Shown here: one piece after another, positions 230 to 64,000 of the stretch
Numbering within the stretch: position 1 is the first letter of the stretch
How the letters are laid out: each line of letters starts with the position of its first letter
Translations under genes and position numbers: made by a program
Source of the DNA: Candidatus Gastranaerophilales bacterium
GTDB lineage: Bacteria > Cyanobacteriota > Vampirovibrionia > Gastranaerophilales > JANQFW01
NCBI GenBank assembly: GCA_028277625.1
Contig: JANQFW010000089.1
Span: forward strand, 15,815 to 79,814
Direction of reading: 5' to 3'
Length of the DNA: 64,000 nucleotides
The notes under the pieces: model-generated
Databases searched by the model: none
Told to the model about the DNA's origin: nothing
The model's input: the letters and a program-made list of their open reading frames with translations, nothing else

Positions 230-1270
230 TTAAATTTTATAGAGCCTCATAACATCTTTAACCTCTTCAAGAACTTCAGATGCTCTTTGTTTTGCCTTTT
301 GACTTCCGTCCGCAATTATCTGCTTAATGTAATCTGTATCTTGCTCAAGTTCTTTACGTTTTTCTCTTATATCCTTAAAGTTATCATTTATCAGGTTAGC
401 AAGTTCTATCTTACAGTCTTTGCAACCTCTGGTTCCGGCGGTGCATTCTTGTCTTACTGCATCTTTAGTGTTTTCATCTGCAAATATTGAATAGTAGGTA
501 TAAACTACTTCGCATTCATCAGGATGCCCGGGGTCTGTTCTTTTAATTCTAGACCTATCTGTTATAGCCCTCATTATTTTCTTAGTTGTTATCTCATCAG
601 AATCTGACAGCTTAATATCATTATTAAAAGACTTACCCATTTTTTGCCCGTCTATACCCTTTAGTAAAGGTGCATGTGTTAATTTAGGCTGAGGCTCATT
701 AAAATAGTCTGTTTTATAGATATAATTAAATTTTCTTGCAATATCTCTGGATAATTCCAAATGAGCAACCTGATCACTACCTACAGGTACTAAAGAGGCA
801 TTGAACATCATTATATCCGCACTTTGTAATACAGGATATCCAAGTAATCCATAAGTGACAACTCCTGAATCAGCCGGAGCTTTAGATTCTTGCTCTTCAG
901 TTTTTTTACTGAGTATCTTAATCATATCCTTAAGGGCAGGGTCTCTTTCAACCCAGTTATGAGGGGTTATCATGCTTAAATAAACATGAAGCTCAGCAAT
1001 TTGAGGTATTAAAGATTGCACATATATTGTGGACACCTCTGGATCAATACCACTTGCTATCCAATCTATTGCAACATCTAAAATATGTTGATTTAATTCT
1101 TCTGTTTCTTCATACTTTGTAGTAAGAGCATGCCAGTCTGCTATTGCAAAATAGCAATCATAGTCATTTTGAAGTTCAACCCAATTTTTTAAAACTCCCA
1201 TATAGTGACCTATATGAAGTTTGCCCGTGGGTCTCATTCCTGACATTATTGTTCTTTTATTTTCCGGCAT
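230..1270 (-). CDS. trpS: tryptophan--tRNA ligase
   Basis: 346-aa ORF with a class I aaRS HIGH-type motif (GKLHIGHY) and KMSKS-type motif (KMGKS). TrpRS-like over its full length. GAGGAG RBS 6 nt upstream of the ATG. Confidence 0.95.
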   Translation of the reverse strand: MPENKRTIMSGMRPTGKLHIGHYMGVLKNWVELQNDYDCYFAIADWHALTTKYEETEELNQHILDVAIDWIASGIDPEVSTIYVQSLIPQIAELHVYLSMITPHNWVERDPALKDMIKILSKKTEEQESKAPADSGVVTYGLLGYPVLQSADIMMFNASLVPVGSDQVAHLELSRDIARKFNYIYKTDYFNEPQPKLTHAPLLKGIDGQKMGKSFNNDIKLSDSDEITTKKIMRAITDRSRIKRTDPGHPDECEVVYTYYSIFADENTKDAVRQECTAGTRGCKDCKIELANLINDNFKDIREKRKELEQDTDYIKQIIADGSQKAKQRASEVLEEVKDVMRLYKI

Positions 1271-1502: not shown

Positions 1503-3224
1503 ATGAAAAGCTTAACGATTGTTCAAAAGTTAATACTGGCATTTACTGCTATATTTTTAATGGCCCTTTTATTGGGGGCTGCAGGCTTATTGGGTGCCTT
1601 AAAGATATCCAATACATCTAAAAATATTTTAAATAAAGAAGCTTTTATCGTTAATTATTCATCACAGGCAAGGGCTTTATCTTTACACTTAAGACGATGT
1701 GAAAAAGATTCATTTTTAAACATTAATAACGAAAAAAAGAGAAAAAAGTACATAGAAAAATGGCATAAAAAATATGAAGAATTAAATACTGTATTAAACA
1801 AGCTAAATAAAAGATTAGCTAAACATAGCCTGGATGAGGATACTAAACTTGTAAACAAATGTATTTCCGGAGTACATGAGTATAAAAAAGCTTTTTTAAA
1901 AATACAAGATGATATAAATGCCGGCTTAATAACAACTCCAGCCGGAGGAAACAAAGCATTAAAACCATTTAAGGAGTACATAAGAGATGTGGATGTATCC
2001 TCTGCTGCTTTAGCAGAAAAATATGATGGCATCATAAACTCTGTTCATAAAAAAATAGATAACTCTTTAGGGTTAGTAATATCTTCAATTGCAGTATTAT
2101 TGCTAATAATTATAATCTCTATTGCAGTTATAAGCTTTTTGTTAATGAGGGCTATTAACACCCCCATAAGCCAACTAGTTAAAAGCTTATCAGAAGTTGC
2201 AAAGGGAGACTTTAGAAAAAAAATTATTGTTGATAATAATGACGAATTTGGTCATATAGCTAAGGCATCTGAATCTATGAGAAATGAGATTAGTAAACTA
2301 ATTATTGACATGACCTCTCAAATAGATTTTTTAAATAAAAATGCAAGTACAATGAGTACTTCTGTAAATCAAACTGTCGAAGGTAGCAATCAAATATCAC
2401 AAAGTATAGTACATCTTTCTACCAGTGCTACCGAACAAAATGAATTTGTGAGTGAAGTTGTCTCTCAATCTCAAAGTATTTCAAATGAATTATCAACTAT
2501 TTCAGATAAAATATCAGAAATAGTTGATTACTCGGAAAACAGTAAAAACAATAGCCAACAGGCTGAAAATGAAGCAAAAGAAGCCATTTTAAAGTTTAAC
2601 AACCTTAACAATTTGTCACTGGAGGCAACGAATACAATCAAGGTGCTTGGTAAAAAAGTTGAAGAAATAAGTGTAATAATAGAATTAATAAAAAATATAT
2701 CTAGTCAAACTAATTTACTTGCATTAAATGCCAGCATAGAAGCAGCAAGAGCCGGTGAGCAAGGTAAAGGATTTGCGGTTGTTGCGGAAGAGGTAAAAAA
2801 ACTTGCCGAAGAATCAGCAAAGGCTTCTAATCAAATTACTGGTATGATTAATGAGATTCAAGAAAAAACAGATCTATCAATTAAATGCATTGATGAAAAT
2901 GATAAAGAAATATGCAAGAGTTCTGAACTTGTCAACCATATAAGCAGCAATTTAGACCAGGTTTTAATTGATTCTAATAACATTAATCACAACATAATAA
3001 ATGTGTCTGATGTTATTAAAAATATAACGATGTATTCTAAAAATATAGAGTCGTCTATAGGAAAAATATACTCAACTTTTGAAGAAAATACTGTAGGAAT
3101 GGAAGAAGTATCTGCTATATCAGAAGAACAGGTAGCCAATATGAATGAAGTTAATGAAAGTATTACAAAGTTATCTAACTTAGCTACAAAGGTTAAAGAA
3201 AGCGTAGTATTTTTTAAGGTTTAG
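1503..3224 (+). CDS. methyl-accepting chemotaxis protein (two TM segments, HAMP-like linker, MCP signalling domain)
   Basis: 573-aa ORF with N-terminal and mid-protein hydrophobic segments. Carries the highly conserved MCP hairpin [37 protein letters not shown]. Confidence 0.9.
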
Positions 3225-3291
3225 ACGTTAAGTAATATTAAATACCTATAAAAACAAGCACTTTTTGTCTAAAAAAATACTTTATAATAGT

Positions 3292-3361
3292 GGGTAAAGG
3301 AAACACTGTTAAAGGTTGGTAAAAACCAAAGATTTAAAGGTGATTAACGTCACCTGTTTTT
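3292..3361 (+). ncRNA. candidate small RNA, family 1 copy A (about 70 nt)
   Basis: GCACTT (3258-3263)-N19-TATAAT (3283-3288), then the conserved 5' end GGGTAAAGG (3292-3300). Hairpin AGGTGA/TCACCT (3338-3355) plus T-run 3357-3361. Lies between convergent CDSs. Paralogous to 27410-27476 and 45029-45116. Confidence 0.5.
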
Positions 3362-3395
3362 ATTTTGTTCACTAATTTATAAAGCATTTATATAA

Positions 3396-4022
3396 TTATT
3401 TATTTGAAAGCTCTACAATAGCATTAGAAGTTGATGTTTTTGAACTTGCTTTATATACTTTTTGCCAGCTCTTTAATATGGACGTCCGTAAGTCCTGCTT
3501 CTCATCTTTTGATAATATATTCCAGTAGTTTGGCTTGATTATTACGACTAACTTATTACCTTGTTCATGAGAAACAAAGGCATTTTGTATATAATTGCGG
3601 TATTGTTTGTTTTTTATGTTATTTATTACTTGTATATTCAACGGAGATAAGGACCTTGTGCTTATGGTGGGGTCTTTTAAATGGCTTATAACCATGTTCT
3701 TTAACCCGGCTAAATTTATTATTAATATTAAAGAAAGAAAGAATGACAATATCCATACCGGTATTAATATTGCAAACTTTTTGCTGTTCTGGTTTGCCTT
3801 TAGGTAAAAACCACAGTCGCAAAAAGACTTTGAGTCTGTTATTAATACCTTGCAGTTTGGGCATGTTTTATCTTGCACTATATTGTTTTTTACATATATT
3901 TTTTTGTCATTAAATGTTTCTACTTTTATGCTGTCTTTATTCATTTTTACCTTTTTATTCGTTATTTTCTTATGAAATATAGTAATATTTTCATAAAGTT
4001 TACAAGTTTTATCGTAGCGCAT
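3396..4022 (-). CDS. hypothetical membrane protein with N-terminal zinc-ribbon-like CPNC...CDC motif
   Basis: 208-aa ORF with CxxC...CxC, then one hydrophobic helix (FAILIPVWILSFFLSLILIINLAGL). The true start may be the internal ATG at 3944 (MNKDSIKV...). Confidence 0.55.
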   Translation of the reverse strand: MRYDKTCKLYENITIFHKKITNKKVKMNKDSIKVETFNDKKIYVKNNIVQDKTCPNCKVLITDSKSFCDCGFYLKANQNSKKFAILIPVWILSFFLSLILIINLAGLKNMVISHLKDPTISTRSLSPLNIQVINNIKNKQYRNYIQNAFVSHEQGNKLVVIIKPNYWNILSKDEKQDLRTSILKSWQKVYKASSKTSTSNAIVELSNK

Positions 4023-4197: not shown

Positions 4198-4398
4198 ATG
4201 GGTGTCAATGCAGAAAAAGACTTTAAAGACAGTTCCTATCAAAAAGCTCAAAAGGCCAAAAAATCTCTCAATAGTTATATAGATCAGCTGGAATTGCATT
4301 TTGACTTAGACGAAAAAGCTGTTTATAATATATTAAAATCCACTTTGCAAACCAGAAAAAATAAAAATTTGAAAAAAAGATGGTGGCAGATGTGGTAA
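4198..4398 (+). CDS. hypothetical small basic protein
   Basis: ORF track 4192-4398. The ATG at 4198 follows an AGGAGAGG RBS. No recognisable family. Confidence 0.4.
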   Translation: MGVNAEKDFKDSSYQKAQKAKKSLNSYIDQLELHFDLDEKAVYNILKSTLQTRKNKNLKKRWWQMW

Positions 4399-43140: not shown

Positions 43141-43578
43141 CTAAACAGGTATTTTAAAATATCTTTGTTTTAATGTGTAACTAATATCTTCTAGCCATAA
43201 AAACCCTATTAATTTCTTTTTCCAAGGAACTTCAACTACTGGTAGGCACTTGTTTTTAAAGCATTTCATTGTTTCATATGCTTCATCTAAACTCATTCCT
43301 GGATAAAGAACAATTGGATAGTCGTACTGATAAGCCAAATCTTTTATTTGTGTATTTCTGATAATGCTTAAGTTTTGCTTTAATCTATCTTTTAGGATTC
43401 TTTTTAGTTTTGTTTTATTTATGTAGCCTAAAAGATAAGATTCTTTGTTTGTAATAGGAATATCCTCGACGTTAAAAAGCTTCATTTTCTCAAAAATATC
43501 GTAAATAGTGTCATTTTCGCAAACAAATACAGAGTCTTCTCTTGTATACTCTTTTACAATCCTTTTAGTCAAACCCAT
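43141..43578 (-). CDS. CBS-pair domain protein
   Basis: 145 aa with two CBS-like repeats (...V.ENDTIYDIFEKMKLFNVEDIPI.... and ...MSLDEAYETMKCFKNKCLPVV...). Confidence 0.65.
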   Translation of the reverse strand: MGLTKRIVKEYTREDSVFVCENDTIYDIFEKMKLFNVEDIPITNKESYLLGYINKTKLKRILKDRLKQNLSIIRNTQIKDLAYQYDYPIVLYPGMSLDEAYETMKCFKNKCLPVVEVPWKKKLIGFLWLEDISYTLKQRYFKIPV

Positions 43579-43888
43579 ATTAAATCCTCTCTATAATGAA
43601 GAAATTTTTGGTAAAAAAAGGTTAAATCCTTTTAAATTAGATTACAGTAGTAAATTAAACTAATCTTTTTTGAAAAACTATAAATGAAAGAATAAGAAAA
43701 AAGTCTTTATAAAGTATAACTCTTTTTTTGCTGAACCCATATTAAATCCTCTCTAAATGTGAAGAAATTTTTAGTAAAAAAAATATTAAATACTTTTAGG
43801 TAGATTATATTAATAAATTTAACTAATTTTTTTTTGAAAAACTATAAGTAAATAGGGTAAAAATATTTATAAAAAAAATATAACTTAC
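43572..43888. repeat. tandem duplication (period 162 bp) of the CBS-gene 5' leader, including the start codon
   Basis: Unit 1 is 43572-43733, unit 2 is 43734-about 43888. Both begin AACCCATATTAAATCCTCTCT (minus strand: AGAGAGGATTTAATATGGGTT = RBS + ATG GGT). Similarity stays recognisable across the units. Confidence 0.8.
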
Positions 43889-44032
43889 CTAGTTAAGTGT
43901 AGCCATCATGTAAATGACCTAGAATTAGATAATGTTTCTATATAGTTTAATTAAAAAGTTTTTTATATGTATACAAGGGTTTTGTATTGTACTTATTTCA
44001 AGTGTTTTAATAGGGTAATAATTTATTCTCCG

Positions 44033-44965
44033 CTATAGTTCTTTTGTTATTTTAAAATGTAATTTTGCAATATTTCCAAGGTTATTTTTGTTGACATGTT
44101 GAATAAAATACCTGGCTTGATCTTTAACTTTTTGAGAGGAACCTTTGGGTAGCTCTACATTATATAGTTCGGAGAGCTTTTTTATTCTTTTAACAAATTC
44201 ATTTCTTGCTAAAATAGAAGCTGCTGCAACTGCAAGATCATCTTCTGCGCGGACTCTTTGCTCTAGATTTATATTTACACCTTTAGCTTTTAAGGCATTT
44301 TTTATTAAGGATTCATCTCCAAATTTATCAGAAAGGGCATTTTCGCATTCTTTTTTTTCTAATATATTTTCTATTACTCTGGCATGACCCCATGCAAGTA
44401 ATTTATTTAAGTTTTTAAAGCTTTCATATAGTTGATTGTATTTATCAGGATTTATCACAACAACTGAATTAATTGTGTTTTCTTTTATCTTAATTGCAAG
44501 TTTCTCTATATTTGAATCTGTTAGTTTTTTACTGTCTTGTACACCAAGGCTGTTTATGATTTCTTTATTTGTTTCATCAATGAGCACGCCTGCAACAACT
44601 AGTGGTCCAAAATAATCTCCCTTACCGGATTCATCTGTTCCTATCCAGCTGGAGTATTTATAGTGTTGATGTTCAATTAAGCTAGCTTGTGTAACTTGTT
44701 CTTGGAGAGTTATGTTAAGGTAATTAGCAAGAAAATATTTTGTATTTTTTCCTTGAACCAGAATTTTGCCACTATTATATAAAGTAATAGTTATTCCAGA
44801 GCCTTGAGCTCGCCAGAATGCGTGATTCATTGGCTTTAGTTCAAATCCGTTACTTTTAAGTTTTTCTTTTAATTCTTTTTCTTTTTTTAAGTCATATTTT
44901 GAACTATAACAATTATTTCCGTTTGTTCCCACAGTGAAAGAACCTTTTTTAAAATCTACTCCCAA
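44033..44965 (-). CDS. rnhC: ribonuclease HIII
   Basis: 310 aa. About 85-aa N-terminal domain followed by WIGTDESGKGDYFGPLVVAGV, the RNase HIII variant of the HII-family active site. Confidence 0.85.
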   Translation of the reverse strand: MGVDFKKGSFTVGTNGNNCYSSKYDLKKEKELKEKLKSNGFELKPMNHAFWRAQGSGITITLYNSGKILVQGKNTKYFLANYLNITLQEQVTQASLIEHQHYKYSSWIGTDESGKGDYFGPLVVAGVLIDETNKEIINSLGVQDSKKLTDSNIEKLAIKIKENTINSVVVINPDKYNQLYESFKNLNKLLAWGHARVIENILEKKECENALSDKFGDESLIKNALKAKGVNINLEQRVRAEDDLAVAAASILARNEFVKRIKKLSELYNVELPKGSSQKVKDQARYFIQHVNKNNLGNIAKLHFKITKEL

Positions 44966-45028
44966 TCAAGAATGTTAAACTAAAAATTATCTAAAGTAAA
45001 ACAAAATAAAACTGTTTTAGAACAAAAT

Positions 45029-45116
45029 AAAAAAGGTTCTTTCAGAACCCCATCGTTAGCACATTACCAAATTTTCATTAAATTTTTTTACTTTACCTTA
45101 CCTTTTTTTTTTACCC
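45029..45116 (-). ncRNA. candidate small RNA / leader, family 1 copy C (about 88 nt)
   Basis: Minus strand: GCATTT (45145-50)-N19-TATAAT (45120-25), 5' end GGGTAAAAAAAAAAGG, hairpin GGTTC-TGAAA-GAACC (45035-49) plus T6. Ends about 65 nt upstream of, and co-directional with, rnhC. Confidence 0.45.
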
Positions 45117-45193
45117 AATATTATAAAGTATTTATTTTATTAAAAAATGCGTATTTTTATAAAAATATTAATAAAAATAAATAAAAAATTTTT

Positions 45194-46060
45194 TTATTTT
45201 TCAGCATATACATAGGCAGATAACGATTCTAGTGTAATAGTTTTGCCGTCCAGTTCAGTTTCTAGGTCTTTGATGTATTGATTTACAATTTGCTCTTCAA
45301 GGTAGTTCATGAACCTTTGTTTTAAAGATTGAGCTCCACCTCCTGATGAGGTATTAAACCAAGGCTCTATCATTGATGCTGATACAGGATAAGTTGATTT
45401 CTCAATGTTTACGTCAATACTAATATTTTTAAACCCAGCTTGAATAAGGTTTTCTTTTAATGTTTTACTATCAAAGTTAGTTAATGGATCACTAGGGTTG
45501 CTCATTATTTTATATTCAACTTCTTTAAGTTTTTCATAGTTAGGAAAGTTAAGGGGGTTTATTAATTCATAATATTTTGTGTTTGATTTAATAATGGGTT
45601 CGAAAAATGAAATTCTTCCTCCAGGTTTAAGGATTCTGTGGAGTTCTCTTATAGAGGTTAATTTATCAAGAACATGAACCAGCACAGAGCGCATAACAAT
45701 TACATCTACAGAGTCATTTTCTAAACCTAAGTTGGTTACGTCTGTGTTGATAAATTCAACATTATTATTAATTCCACAATCTTGTGCTATTTTTTTGCAT
45801 TCGTTCAGGCAGTCTTGAGCTGAATCTGAAAAAATAACTTTTCCGGATTCTTTTAGTTTATTATAGGCTTCGAAGGCTAATAAACCTGTACCAGTACCTA
45901 TATCTATTAAGACATCATCTTCTTGTAGTTTTGCATTCTCTAGTATTTTGTCTCTAACCAACATTAACCAATTTATAGTTTGATTTTTCTGTTCTTCTGT
46001 CATATAAGAAAATCTGGAATTCTTGAGCCACTGTGTCCATGTTTCTATAACTTTAGACAT
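45194..46060 (-). CDS. class I SAM-dependent methyltransferase
   Basis: Motif I VLIDIGTGTGLLA, post-I FSDS, then LKPGGRISFFEP. Confidence 0.8.
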   Translation of the reverse strand: MSKVIETWTQWLKNSRFSYMTEEQKNQTINWLMLVRDKILENAKLQEDDVLIDIGTGTGLLAFEAYNKLKESGKVIFSDSAQDCLNECKKIAQDCGINNNVEFINTDVTNLGLENDSVDVIVMRSVLVHVLDKLTSIRELHRILKPGGRISFFEPIIKSNTKYYELINPLNFPNYEKLKEVEYKIMSNPSDPLTNFDSKTLKENLIQAGFKNISIDVNIEKSTYPVSASMIEPWFNTSSGGGAQSLKQRFMNYLEEQIVNQYIKDLETELDGKTITLESLSAYVYAEK

Positions 46061-46086
46061 GACTAACCTCTTTCTAATTACCTGAT

Positions 46087-46353
46087 TTATACTGCCTCAA
46101 AAGCTTTTTTGCAGTTTGAGCAGTGGGTTTCTTCTTTATTAACCTTTGTACTACAATACGAGCATTGTTTATATACTTCTCCAGGTTTATTTTTATAGTC
46201 CTTGGATGTTTTATTTAATGCGTCAAATAAATCATTTGATTTAATGTTTTTCTTTTTTAATAAATAAGTTGTTGTTATGAAAATAATAAAAAATTTCACT
46301 GTAACAGCAATGATAATAAATAAAAAAGCTAATTTTAAAATGCTTATTAACAC
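46087..46353 (-). CDS. small membrane protein with C-terminal zinc-ribbon (CSYC...CSNC)
   Basis: 88 aa with an N-terminal TM helix and a CxxC-x11-CxxC tail. Confidence 0.45.
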   Translation of the reverse strand: MLISILKLAFLFIIIAVTVKFFIIFITTTYLLKKKNIKSNDLFDALNKTSKDYKNKPGEVYKQCSYCSTKVNKEETHCSNCKKAFEAV

Positions 46354-46599
46354 TATTTTGTAATACCTCTTATCTTTGTTTTTTCTACTTTATATTATAC
46401 TCCCAATAATTATAATTTATAAATTTATTCTGGTACTTCTTGCCATATTGTTGTATGCTATCATTAATTATGATTATAAGTGTTTAGTTAACTGGATTTT
46501 GGTTTATATAAAATGAAGTTTTGTATAAATAGTGTTATGTTTGAGAGTTTGTTTAGAAATTATATTTACATACAAGTTTAGATATCTGGGTGGAGGAAT

Positions 46600-62278: not shown

Positions 62279-62316
62279 AAGTTTTTTTAAAATAAAATAA
62301 TTATTTTTATTTTTTG

Positions 62317-62400
62317 GGCAATTTAGAAATTGTTTTTGTTTTTATAATATTGTGAGATAAGTGAGAGCCAAAGTGGGTATAATTATTATTTAATTTGTGT
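62317..62400 (+). repeat. duplicated promoter/leader block, copy 1
   Basis: GGCAATTTAGAAATTGTTTTTGTTTTTATAATATTGTGAGATAAGTGAGAG...GGGTATAATT aligns with 63116-63200. Contains GCAATT (62318-23)-N19-TATAAT (62343-48). Confidence 0.6.
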
Positions 62401-62505
62401 TCAAAAAATGTAAAATTTAAATAATTATCCAACTGTAACATTTTTAAGCTTTTATTTATTTTTTGTAAAGATGAGGTAGTTTTAAAAGGTGTAGGAGGTA
62501 CACAA

Positions 62506-62916
62506 ATGGCAGTATCAGGTATGAATTCTGGACGTACTTACTCTGGAGAGGTTATGGATTTTTTAAAAGGAGGATTTAAGGATAAAAAAGCTTTGTTTGG
62601 TCAGGCGAAAGATTTTATAGCGTTAAAAGATACAGATAAAAATGGAACGATTTCAAAGGAGGAAGCCTTATTTAAAACTAAAGGCAAGATGCAACATGAT
62701 ATAGAAAAAATGTTTAAAAGAGTTGACCTGGATAAAGATGGTGAGCTTGATTATAAAGAGCTGGCATCCTTCAAGTTTTCGGCAGATGTAGATAGAAATA
62801 ATAATGTTACTAATAAAGAAGCGACAAATGCTTATGATGTTTCGATTGATGGTAAAGAAGGCTTTGTTAAAAATATATTAAGAAGTGCTTATACTCTTTT
62901 GGATTTAGGCTCTTAG
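62506..62916 (+). CDS. EF-hand calcium-binding protein
   Basis: Three canonical 12-residue loops: DTDKNGTISKEE, DLDKDGELDYKE, DVDRNNNVTNKE. GTAGGAGG RBS. Confidence 0.75.
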   Translation: MAVSGMNSGRTYSGEVMDFLKGGFKDKKALFGQAKDFIALKDTDKNGTISKEEALFKTKGKMQHDIEKMFKRVDLDKDGELDYKELASFKFSADVDRNNNVTNKEATNAYDVSIDGKEGFVKNILRSAYTLLDLGS

Positions 62917-63115
62917 TTTTTTATTAAATATCACAAGGTATTAAATAATTAGCATAAAGTAATTACTTTTATATATCTTAAGGTAAAAAGCTATAATATT
63001 AGTAAGTATTCAAGTTACCATTAATAAGATTTATTAGGAAATAAAACTATAGATATAAAAATTCATCCCCTTTGAGATACAAATCAAAGGGGATTAGTCA
63101 TATGGTATTCAGTTT

Positions 63116-63200
63116 GGCAATTTAGAAGTTTATTTTGTTTTTATAATATTGTAAGGTAGTGAGGATTAAATATGGTATAATTGGTATTCAGCTTGTGTAT
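63116..63200 (+). repeat. duplicated promoter/leader block, copy 2
   Basis: GGCAATTTAGAAGTTTATTTTGTTTTTATAATATTGTAAGGTAGTGAGG...TGGTATAATT. Contains GCAATT (63117-22)-N19-TATAAT (63142-47). A weak AAGCTT/AAGCTT hairpin plus T8 follows at 63231-63259. Confidence 0.6.
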
Positions 63201-63319
63201 TAAAGAAAATAAATAATAAGTAAAGTTAGTAAGCTTGAAATATTTTTAAGCTTTTTTTTATTAATTTTGCATATATTTGACTTTTAAAAAGTGAATCTTA
63301 ATAGATAGGAGTTTTTAGT

Positions 63320-64000
63320 ATGTTAACTGGTATTTCTTTGGATAAAGGTAGGATACAAAAAGCATTCAAGGTCGTTGAAAATAATTTTGATTATTTTGAC
63401 ACAGTAGGAGGAGGAGAAGAGGATAGTGTATTTAATCTTTCTAGTATAGCAGTTGCAGCAATAGATGAAAATGCAGATAAAAGTATTAAAGAAGCTGCAA
63501 TGATTCTCTTAAGTAATCAGTACTTTTTAAACTCTTTCCTGAATGAAAAAAAAGAAAAATATCCTATAAAAGAAGATGTAGAGGGGATGTTAGACTTATA
63601 TTTGACTGATTGGTATTTTAATATTTCAGATGAAGAGGACGGTAAGCGAGACGGTAAAATTCATAAGTCTGTTATGCCCAAGAATCCATTTAATAGTGCT
63701 ACTTCTAACGATGATGTCTACAAGGGGGGGGGCTTTTCTCAAGAAATGCTTGATGATATAAGCAAGGATGATGATTATATAACAAAAGATGAATTGTTAA
63801 TGTTTGAAAAATCATTGAGAGGGTTTAGTAAACATGACATCGAAAATTTTGATAAGTCGTTCTCTAAACATATTAGTGATGGAAAAGTGGAAAGTTTAAT
63901 AGGATATAACCATTTTGCAACGGCACTAGTTGCTCTTAATGATAAGTCTATAGGTAAAAAAATTATTAAGGAATCTATAAAAAGAGGTGAAGGAGGATTT
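63320..64000 (+). CDS. hypothetical acidic protein with degenerate EF-hand-like loops (partial, runs off the right edge)
   Basis: ATG at 63320 after a GGAG RBS. I read 227 codons to the window end with no stop. Absent from the ORF track because no stop is reached. Contains a G9 run at 63724-63732. Confidence 0.5.
   Translation, partial: MLTGISLDKGRIQKAFKVVENNFDYFDTVGGGEEDSVFNLSSIAVAAIDENADKSIKEAAMILLSNQYFLNSFLNEKKEKYPIKEDVEGMLDLYLTDWYFNISDEEDGKRDGKIHKSVMPKNPFNSATSNDDVYKGGGFSQEMLDDISKDDDYITKDELLMFEKSLRGFSKHDIENFDKSFSKHISDGKVESLIGYNHFATALVALNDKSIGKKIIKESIKRGEGGF

Follow-up and report, generated by a model that had tools for sequence, protein, structure and literature searches.

We read the short unit between a SAM-methyltransferase gene and rnhC, on the minus strand of this stretch of Candidatus Gastranaerophilales DNA (64 kb in all, hereafter the window), as a stand-alone gene. 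Its predicted product is a purine-rich and largely unstructured small RNA of about 90 nt that belongs to a family of sibling RNAs (Family 1, in which this unit is copy C), would act in trans, and would share its terminator with the upstream operon. We assign this reading a probability of roughly 0.55. It is based on the sequence anatomy of the unit, its membership of the family, the orthology and synteny of the locus in related genomes, and the constraint on its transcribed core, all of which we observe directly. The features of the locus, and the two other family copies in the window, are listed here.

45194-46060, minus strand: SAM-methyltransferase gene upstream of copy C, identified by domain matches; synteny kept in L006 and L008
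45161-45023, minus strand: copy C unit, comprising promoter, short RNA and terminator, from sequence reading
45145-45161, minus strand: upstream promoter box TATAAAAATACGCATTT (-35 region), with GCATTT 19 nt from TATAAT
45120-45130, minus strand: extended -10 element TACTTTATAAT, with TATAAT at 45125-45120; identical in 10 of the 11 family copies
45116-45114, minus strand: GGG, putative start of the copy C RNA, followed by T and then A10
45023-45116, minus strand: putative type C small RNA of about 90 nt, from the GGG to the U-tract, placed from the -10 position and the terminator
45103-45112, minus strand: A10 run, specific to the window genome
45091-45102, minus strand: GGTAAGGTAAAG, purine-rich AAAGGU-type repeats common to the family
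45045-45075, minus strand: type-C-specific core AAAATTTGGTAATGTGCTAACGATGGGGTTC, 31 nt, identical in three genomes
45023-45051, minus strand: intrinsic terminator, with hairpin GGGGTTCTGAAAGAACCTT at 45051-45033 (8 pairs, loop of 3) and T-run TTTTATTTTG
44957-44998, minus strand: putative promoter-like region of rnhC, with TACTTTAGATAAT at 44998-44986, TAACAT at 44977-44972 and ATTGGGAGTA at 44966-44957
44033-44932, minus strand: rnhC (RNase HIII; Pfam RNase_HII and DUF3378), with a GTG start at 44932
3233-3366, plus strand: family copy A, comprising promoter, RNA of about 75 nt and terminator; convergent with the gene at 3396-4022; orthologues in L002 and L005
27351-27476, plus strand: family copy B; convergent with a yidD-like ORF and rnpA, divergent from proB

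These assignments confirm, on the minus strand, the coordinates and the anatomy given for copy C in the original prediction, namely a promoter, an A10-GGTAAGGTAAAG body, an AT-rich stretch and a terminator. The promoter-like block has the form GCATTT-N19-TATAAT, and its upstream box was also located at 45148-45161; an AT-rich spacer separates the TATAAAAATACGCATTT box from the stop codon of the methyltransferase gene. We place the presumed transcription start site from the position of the -10 element. Beyond GGTAAGGTAAAG, the unit continues with an A/T-rich stretch and TTTGGTAATGTGCTAACGAT, after which come the hairpin and the T-run. The body is 73% purine (50% A and 23% G) and 3% C, and contains four GGT. 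Computed folding gives the terminator hairpin a free energy of only -7.3 kcal/mol, so that read-through may be appreciable. In a consensus scan this hairpin is the sole minus-strand terminator-like site in 44000-46200 and, because no other terminator follows the methyltransferase gene, it must also end the methyltransferase operon. No start codon or ORF in copy C is conserved among the three orthologous loci; the window copy has a 4-codon ORF whose ATG corresponds to ATA in both orthologues.

Membership of the family does not depend on copy C itself. A leave-out HMM, built on the promoter and 5' end of the non-C copies only, detects copy C at E = 1.4e-9, and across the 64-kb window the same model finds nothing below E = 0.5 besides A, B and C. 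The likeness to A and B that had been noted earlier is borne out by an exact 21-mer, TACTTTATAATATTGGGTAAA, which copies B and C have in common, and by the upstream box, which stands in the same register in all three copies. A claimed match over the first 8 nt holds for seven of the eight positions; the eighth base differs, A and B reading GGGTAAAG and C reading GGGTAAAA. Scanning species-representative genomes with the pattern TACTTTATAATANTGGGTAAA gave eight true matches in two Candidatus Gastranaerophilales MAGs and one chance match, and the C orthologue in L008/L009, which has a variant -10 element, is a further copy beyond these exact-pattern matches. The two sister MAGs encode RNase HIII proteins with 84% and 81% identity to that of the window, and the next relatives, also Gastranaerophilales/Melainabacteria, reach 68% at most; judged by these identities, the window genome is therefore a third member of a narrow clade. 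The family comprises 11 copies at 4 or 5 loci in three Gastranaerophilales genomes, distributed over the following types.

Type A: window copy A, L002 and L005
Type B and B-like (B/B'): window copy B and L004
Type C: window copy C, L006 and L008/L009
Type D: L001 and the tandem pair in L003

All 11 copies have GGGTAAA directly after the -10 region, and the eighth base is G in types A and B and A in types C and D. Their bodies are 39-72 nt long with 45-53% A, 21-29% G and 3-11% C, and each of the 11 contains two to four GGT in AAAGGT-type repeats. The terminators consist of a T-run behind a hairpin of -7 to -10 kcal/mol, 70-105 nt from the promoter/start, and a near-exact TTTTTATTTTGTTC-type tail follows the T-run in types A, C and D (10 of 11 copies). 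Copy A and its orthologues are convergent with the same uncharacterised gene in three genomes, and the L004 copy faces a formyltransferase-like gene in convergent orientation. Types A and B and the L004 copy cannot be leaders, because they converge with the next gene. Unlike A and B, as had been pointed out, copy C is co-directional with its downstream gene, rnhC, and type D units are likewise co-directional with a 365-aa gene about 300 nt away.

The neighborhoods of two other types have changed among these genomes. In L003 (1358-1767, minus strand) two tandem type D units, both complete with promoter and terminator, lie 180 nt apart upstream of a 364-aa gene, and L001 has a single type D unit at the orthologous place; type D copy number therefore changes by tandem duplication. 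Beside copy A, the window has a chemotaxis-receptor (MCP) gene (1503-3224, plus strand) that both sister MAGs lack at the orthologous locus, where copy A adjoins a class-I tRNA-synthetase gene (the orthologue of window 230-1270). From this comparison of gene order, the MCP gene is a lineage-specific insertion or loss.

Searches beyond these genomes gave no relatives of the family. The whole window has zero matches to any Rfam family at gathering thresholds, and copies A and C together with seven related loci give only chance matches at permissive E values (24 bits at most, E of at least 0.019). Membership of Yfr2/Cyano-1 was rejected, there being no Rfam match, and a match of the histone stem-loop model to the copy C terminator lies on the opposite strand and was discarded as chance. 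A metagenome scan with a relaxed pattern for the promoter and 5' end returned 22 matches in unrelated contexts without a terminator, which we also regard as chance. Viral contigs, phages and plasmids gave chance matches or none when searched for the family, and a mobile or phage element as the source of the unit was rejected on these searches. We consider Family 1 to be a candidate small-RNA family that is absent from Rfam and known so far from three genomes of Candidatus Gastranaerophilales (Melainabacteria/Vampirovibrionia) that are close relatives, a number that gives comparisons little power.

The promoter is the module that the copies share most clearly. A GCA[ATC]TT box (GCAYTT) lies exactly 19 nt before TATAAT, which is preceded by TACTT, and this register is the same in all copies with TATAAT; L008 has TATATAAT. 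The extended -10 of L008, TACTTTATATAAT, is the sole exception among the 11 copies: at 4236-4250 (plus strand) of this locus, from MAG PL23b, the type C orthologue has TACTTTATATAATTGGG instead of TACTTTATAATATTGGG. The -10 region of the family thus tolerates a shift, and scans with an exact pattern miss such copies. In the window there are five matches at N = 19, whereas the other spacings between 5 and 35 nt give between none and two each. Two of the five, at 62318 and 63117, are extra to the family and lie upstream of an EF-hand protein gene and an uncharacterised gene, so that the N19 module appears to be a promoter type of the organism and not just part of the repeat. The two upstream regions (62290-62510 and 63090-63325, both plus strand) are paralogous over about 200 nt at about 80% identity and have in common TGGCAATTTAGAA…TTTTGTTTTTATAATATTGT, a second GGTATAAT and a conserved ATTTTTAAGCTTTT block, with the same GCAAT-N19-TATAAT spacing as in Family 1. 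The genes behind them, the EF-hand protein at 62506-62916 and the uncharacterised gene from 63320, are unrelated. A canonical -35 hexamer would call for a spacing shorter than 19 nt, and the box may accordingly be the binding site of an activator; readings of the promoter as SigF/sigma-B-like or sigma-54 were rejected on spacing. A common module of this kind implies that transcription of the sibling RNAs would be co-regulated.

The order methyltransferase gene, unit, rnhC is kept in L006 and L008, which allows the rate of change to be compared along the locus in a three-way alignment. Pairwise identities are given below.

Stop codon to promoter: 45-61%
Promoter of copy C: 66-85%
First 37 nt of the copy C RNA: 74-95%
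Core and terminator of copy C: 89-98%, with 31 nt identical in all three
Third codon positions of rnhC: 63-70%

Since the core with the terminator is 89-98% identical and the third codon positions of rnhC are 63-70% identical, the predicted transcribed core of copy C is, by this measure, under purifying selection. The most constrained part of the unit, the 31-nt core, is neither promoter nor hairpin. All pairs of the terminator are retained in the orthologues with the exception of the loop-closing pair, which is A-A in L008. The earlier suggestion of a small RNA with its own promoter and terminator is therefore supported both by this constraint and by the paralogues that lie between convergent genes.

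The A10 run that had been singled out in copy C is not a conserved functional feature, because it is absent from both orthologues. L006, L008 and L009 read GGGTAAAGAAAAGGTAAAAGGTTAAG where window copy C reads GGGTAAAAAAAAAAGGTAAGGTAAAG, with overall length unchanged, and L009, an independent Logan assembly, confirms this reading for one of the orthologues. The proposed comparison of A-tract length among relatives, made here with the sister genomes as the nearest ones in the collections searched, does not bear out a conserved tract, both orthologues having GGGTAAAGAAAAGG at the place of A10. Judged from these alignments, A10 is derived in the lineage of the window genome by one G-to-A substitution and changes in A-run length. 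Polymerase slippage is possible on runs of at least nine A, and the description of the run as slippage-prone is thus sound in principle as regards length; slippage at A10 would nevertheless be a peculiarity of the window genome and not a conserved device.

In the MFE, centroid and three-genome consensus folds of copy C, the terminator hairpin alone is robust, the z-score is -0.98, and no pair of the fold shows a compensatory change among the three orthologues. A hairpin around GGTWGGTAAA that can be drawn in types A and B was rejected on sequence reading, since it is not conserved between orthologues. RNAduplex predictions that pair A, B or C with 55 translation-initiation regions of the window are no better than those for shuffled RNAs, and a window search for CU-rich complements of the purine repeats or of the 5' end returned the units themselves or near-chance counts.

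These negative results speak for a reading in which copy C encodes no functional RNA and is instead a composite at the DNA level, with the terminator of the methyltransferase operon and a duplicated strong promoter kept for insulation or as a protein-binding site. Also in favor of such a composite are the absence of any other terminator downstream of the methyltransferase operon and the fact that the promoter and first bases are the best-conserved part among paralogues. The composite does not account for the location of the strongest constraint within type C, which falls on 31 nt outside both promoter and hairpin that are 100% identical in three genomes. Moreover, in every copy, including those of the L003 tandem, the promoter has a terminator 70-105 nt behind it, which is the layout of a small gene. 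We therefore think the composite unlikely.

A second alternative retains a functional RNA and changes its role. In the manner of CsrB/RsmZ, CrcZ or Yfr2, the AAAGGU/AAAGGA motifs of the family might titrate an RNA-binding protein or a CU-rich small RNA, with no pairing to mRNA. The composition of the copies invites this idea, as each carries two to four GGU and up to two GGA in an unstructured body that is 70-80% purine, and repeated GG-containing purine motifs in a small non-coding RNA are likewise found in the CsrB/RsmZ sponges. The precedent from cyanobacteria is the multi-copy Yfr2, whose 5' motif is complementary to Yfr1 and Yfr10 and which blocks their binding to a target (PMC6778093). 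Type C, however, has no GGA in any of the three genomes (the other types have one or two), and the motifs are not presented in the loops of hairpins, unlike those of CsrB/RsmZ; on the absence of GGA, a CsrB-like role is unlikely for this type. The window yielded neither a CU-rich partner nor a complementary motif, and a pure decoy role leaves the invariant type C core unexplained. Taken together, these points make the decoy explanation distinctly unlikely.

The remaining alternative is that copy C is a cis-acting leader of rnhC. The original prediction had an ATG at 44965 and put the end of the unit about 65 nt before the gene. There is no ATG at this position, where the mechanical ORF start is a TTG, and the real start is the GTG at 44932. 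This codon is preceded by an SD-like AAAGG at 44947-44943 and is kept in both orthologues; in L006 the TTG of the mechanical start is TTA, and an in-frame TAG lies between that codon and the GTG. A database protein (P0001) that is 100% identical to the RNase HIII of the window has 299 aa. Counted to the GTG, the gap between unit and gene is about 91 nt, and this interval contains a promoter-like motif: downstream of the terminator and before rnhC, each of the three orthologous loci has a -10-like hexamer (TAACAT, TAATAT or TATATT) with ATTGGGAGTAG, which is invariant, behind it. The window contains just two exact occurrences of the 10-mer ATTGGGAGTA, at 44957-44966 and at 46398-46407 (both minus strand), the second of them one base behind a TATAAT that precedes the upstream operon. 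Both occurrences precede a minus-strand gene or operon, and the 10-mer may be a start-site or 5'-UTR motif of the lineage. A start site of rnhC downstream of the unit, which had been named in advance as an observation that would speak against a leader, is suggested by the conserved motif and not proven by it. Read in this way, most transcription of rnhC probably begins at the gene's own promoter-like element.

More distant relatives also speak against a leader. At L010, L034, L035 and L036, where RNase HIII is 62-68% identical to that of the window, rnhC has no family unit and follows serS, an SMR-type gene or a small ORF at a distance of 13-118 nt. These loci retain a CBS-domain gene and a small gene as the downstream neighbors of rnhC, and about 56 kb of their sequence contains no family unit. 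A unit beside rnhC is thus found only in the three genomes whose RNase HIII is at least 81% identical. Within the window, the interval between rnhC and the CBS-domain gene (43141-43578) holds a separate peculiarity at 43575-43880 (minus strand), where about 145 nt upstream of the CBS-domain gene are duplicated directly upstream at about 87% identity. The duplicated segment includes the RBS and the ATGGGT start, and the extra copy, which opens an ORF of only 20 codons, is probably a relic of tandem duplication.

Copy C has the layout of intrinsic-terminator attenuators and riboswitch leaders, with a short transcribed region between promoter and terminator and a gene in the same direction behind them. 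Unlike these systems, it has no antiterminator and no fold that would bind a ligand or protein, it is kept with rnhC in three genomes only, and rnhC likely has a separate promoter. A leader in which rnhC was transcribed from the unit's promoter with conditional termination at 45033-45051, possibly modulated by slippage on the A-run, would fit the co-directional placement 91 nt upstream of the GTG, the retention of this arrangement in three genomes, the modest terminator and the similar orientation of type D in two genomes, but is improbable and the least favored of the alternatives given that no fold competing with the terminator is predicted (the body has almost no C with which to pair GGGGUUC), that the siblings A, B and L004 have no co-directional downstream gene, that relatives have rnhC without the unit, that a conserved promoter-like motif follows the terminator, that A10 is absent from the orthologues, and that Rfam contains no matching leader or other cis-regulatory element.

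We therefore return to the stand-alone small-RNA gene, whose transcription, start site, action in trans and mode of action are predictions from the features described above. The promoter of the unit would produce an RNA of about 90 nt ending at the intrinsic terminator, and methyltransferase transcripts that run into the unit would end at the same place. The RNA would then work in trans, either by pairing to RNAs rich in pyrimidines or by serving as a decoy, through the purine-rich, Shine-Dalgarno-like 5' module that is common to the family, and the invariant, type-specific core of 31 nt would probably give copy C a specificity of its own. The original prediction had also offered a small RNA whose read-through feeds rnhC. 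Its small-RNA part is supported; read-through past a hairpin of modest stability would make at most a secondary contribution to rnhC, and a cis contribution of types C and D to their downstream genes is possible.

Copy C is most likely an ordinary kind of object, a gene made up of promoter, small RNA and terminator, in a family that is itself undescribed. Families of sibling small RNAs with one common promoter type each include Qrr1-5 of Vibrio, the CiaR-dependent csRNAs of Streptococcus and LhrC1-5 of Listeria, which carry C/U-rich seeds that pair with Shine-Dalgarno regions. Family 1 resembles them in having paralogous genes of 70-110 nt scattered in intergenic regions, with near-identical promoters and intrinsic terminators, in bodies that diverge around short common motifs, and in tandem duplication (L003). 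It differs from them in that its RNAs, which are predicted from sequence, are purine-rich and almost without C, and there is no sequence or Rfam relationship. In Nostoc, NsiR1 consists of tandem promoter-small RNA-terminator units upstream of hetF. Family 1 is similar to NsiR1 in that the unit has its own promoter, short RNA and terminator, can occur in tandem (L003) and can sit co-directionally upstream of a protein gene; it has no sequence similarity to NsiR1, and most of its copies are dispersed and not arrayed.

A further comparison is Yfr2 (Cyano-1) of cyanobacteria, which is also a multi-copy small-RNA family and whose hosts are the sister lineage of the Melainabacteria. Types A and B begin with GGGUAAAGGAAACAC, which resembles what we take to be the GGAAACA motif of Yfr2. 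Unlike Yfr2, type C has no GGAAACA-like stretch, the promoter box is different, and Rfam gives no match even at E = 5-10; no Yfr1-like partner was seen in an Rfam scan of the window. Like the Family 1 copies, the yfr2 paralogues have a conserved promoter element in common, in their case CGRE1 (PMC6191309). If Family 1 RNAs were decoys, they would be a functional analogue of Yfr2 sponging Yfr1 in cyanobacteria. One could go further and propose that Family 1 is the first riboregulator family of Melainabacteria/Gastranaerophilales, the non-photosynthetic sister group of cyanobacteria. Its co-regulated sibling RNAs would have unstructured, SD-like purine repeats that serve as decoys, whether for the anti-SD end of 16S rRNA, for a small RNA rich in C and U or for a protein that binds RNA; type-specific cores (the 31 nt of copy C) would add individual targets, and the unusual shared promoter, with a GCAAT box 19 nt before TATAAT, would define a regulon that includes the protein genes at 62506 and 63320. 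This proposal is speculative, and we hold it to be unlikely as a whole.

For copy C itself, the outcome of this analysis is mostly corrective: rnhC starts at the GTG at 44932 and has a probable promoter of its own, the unit is probably not an attenuator, and the A10 run is recent. Melainabacteria are uncultured gut relatives of cyanobacteria, and our literature search found no paper on small regulatory RNAs in this group. Family 1 gives concrete candidates for metatranscriptome searches, and the common promoter module could help to define promoters in the Gastranaerophilales lineage.
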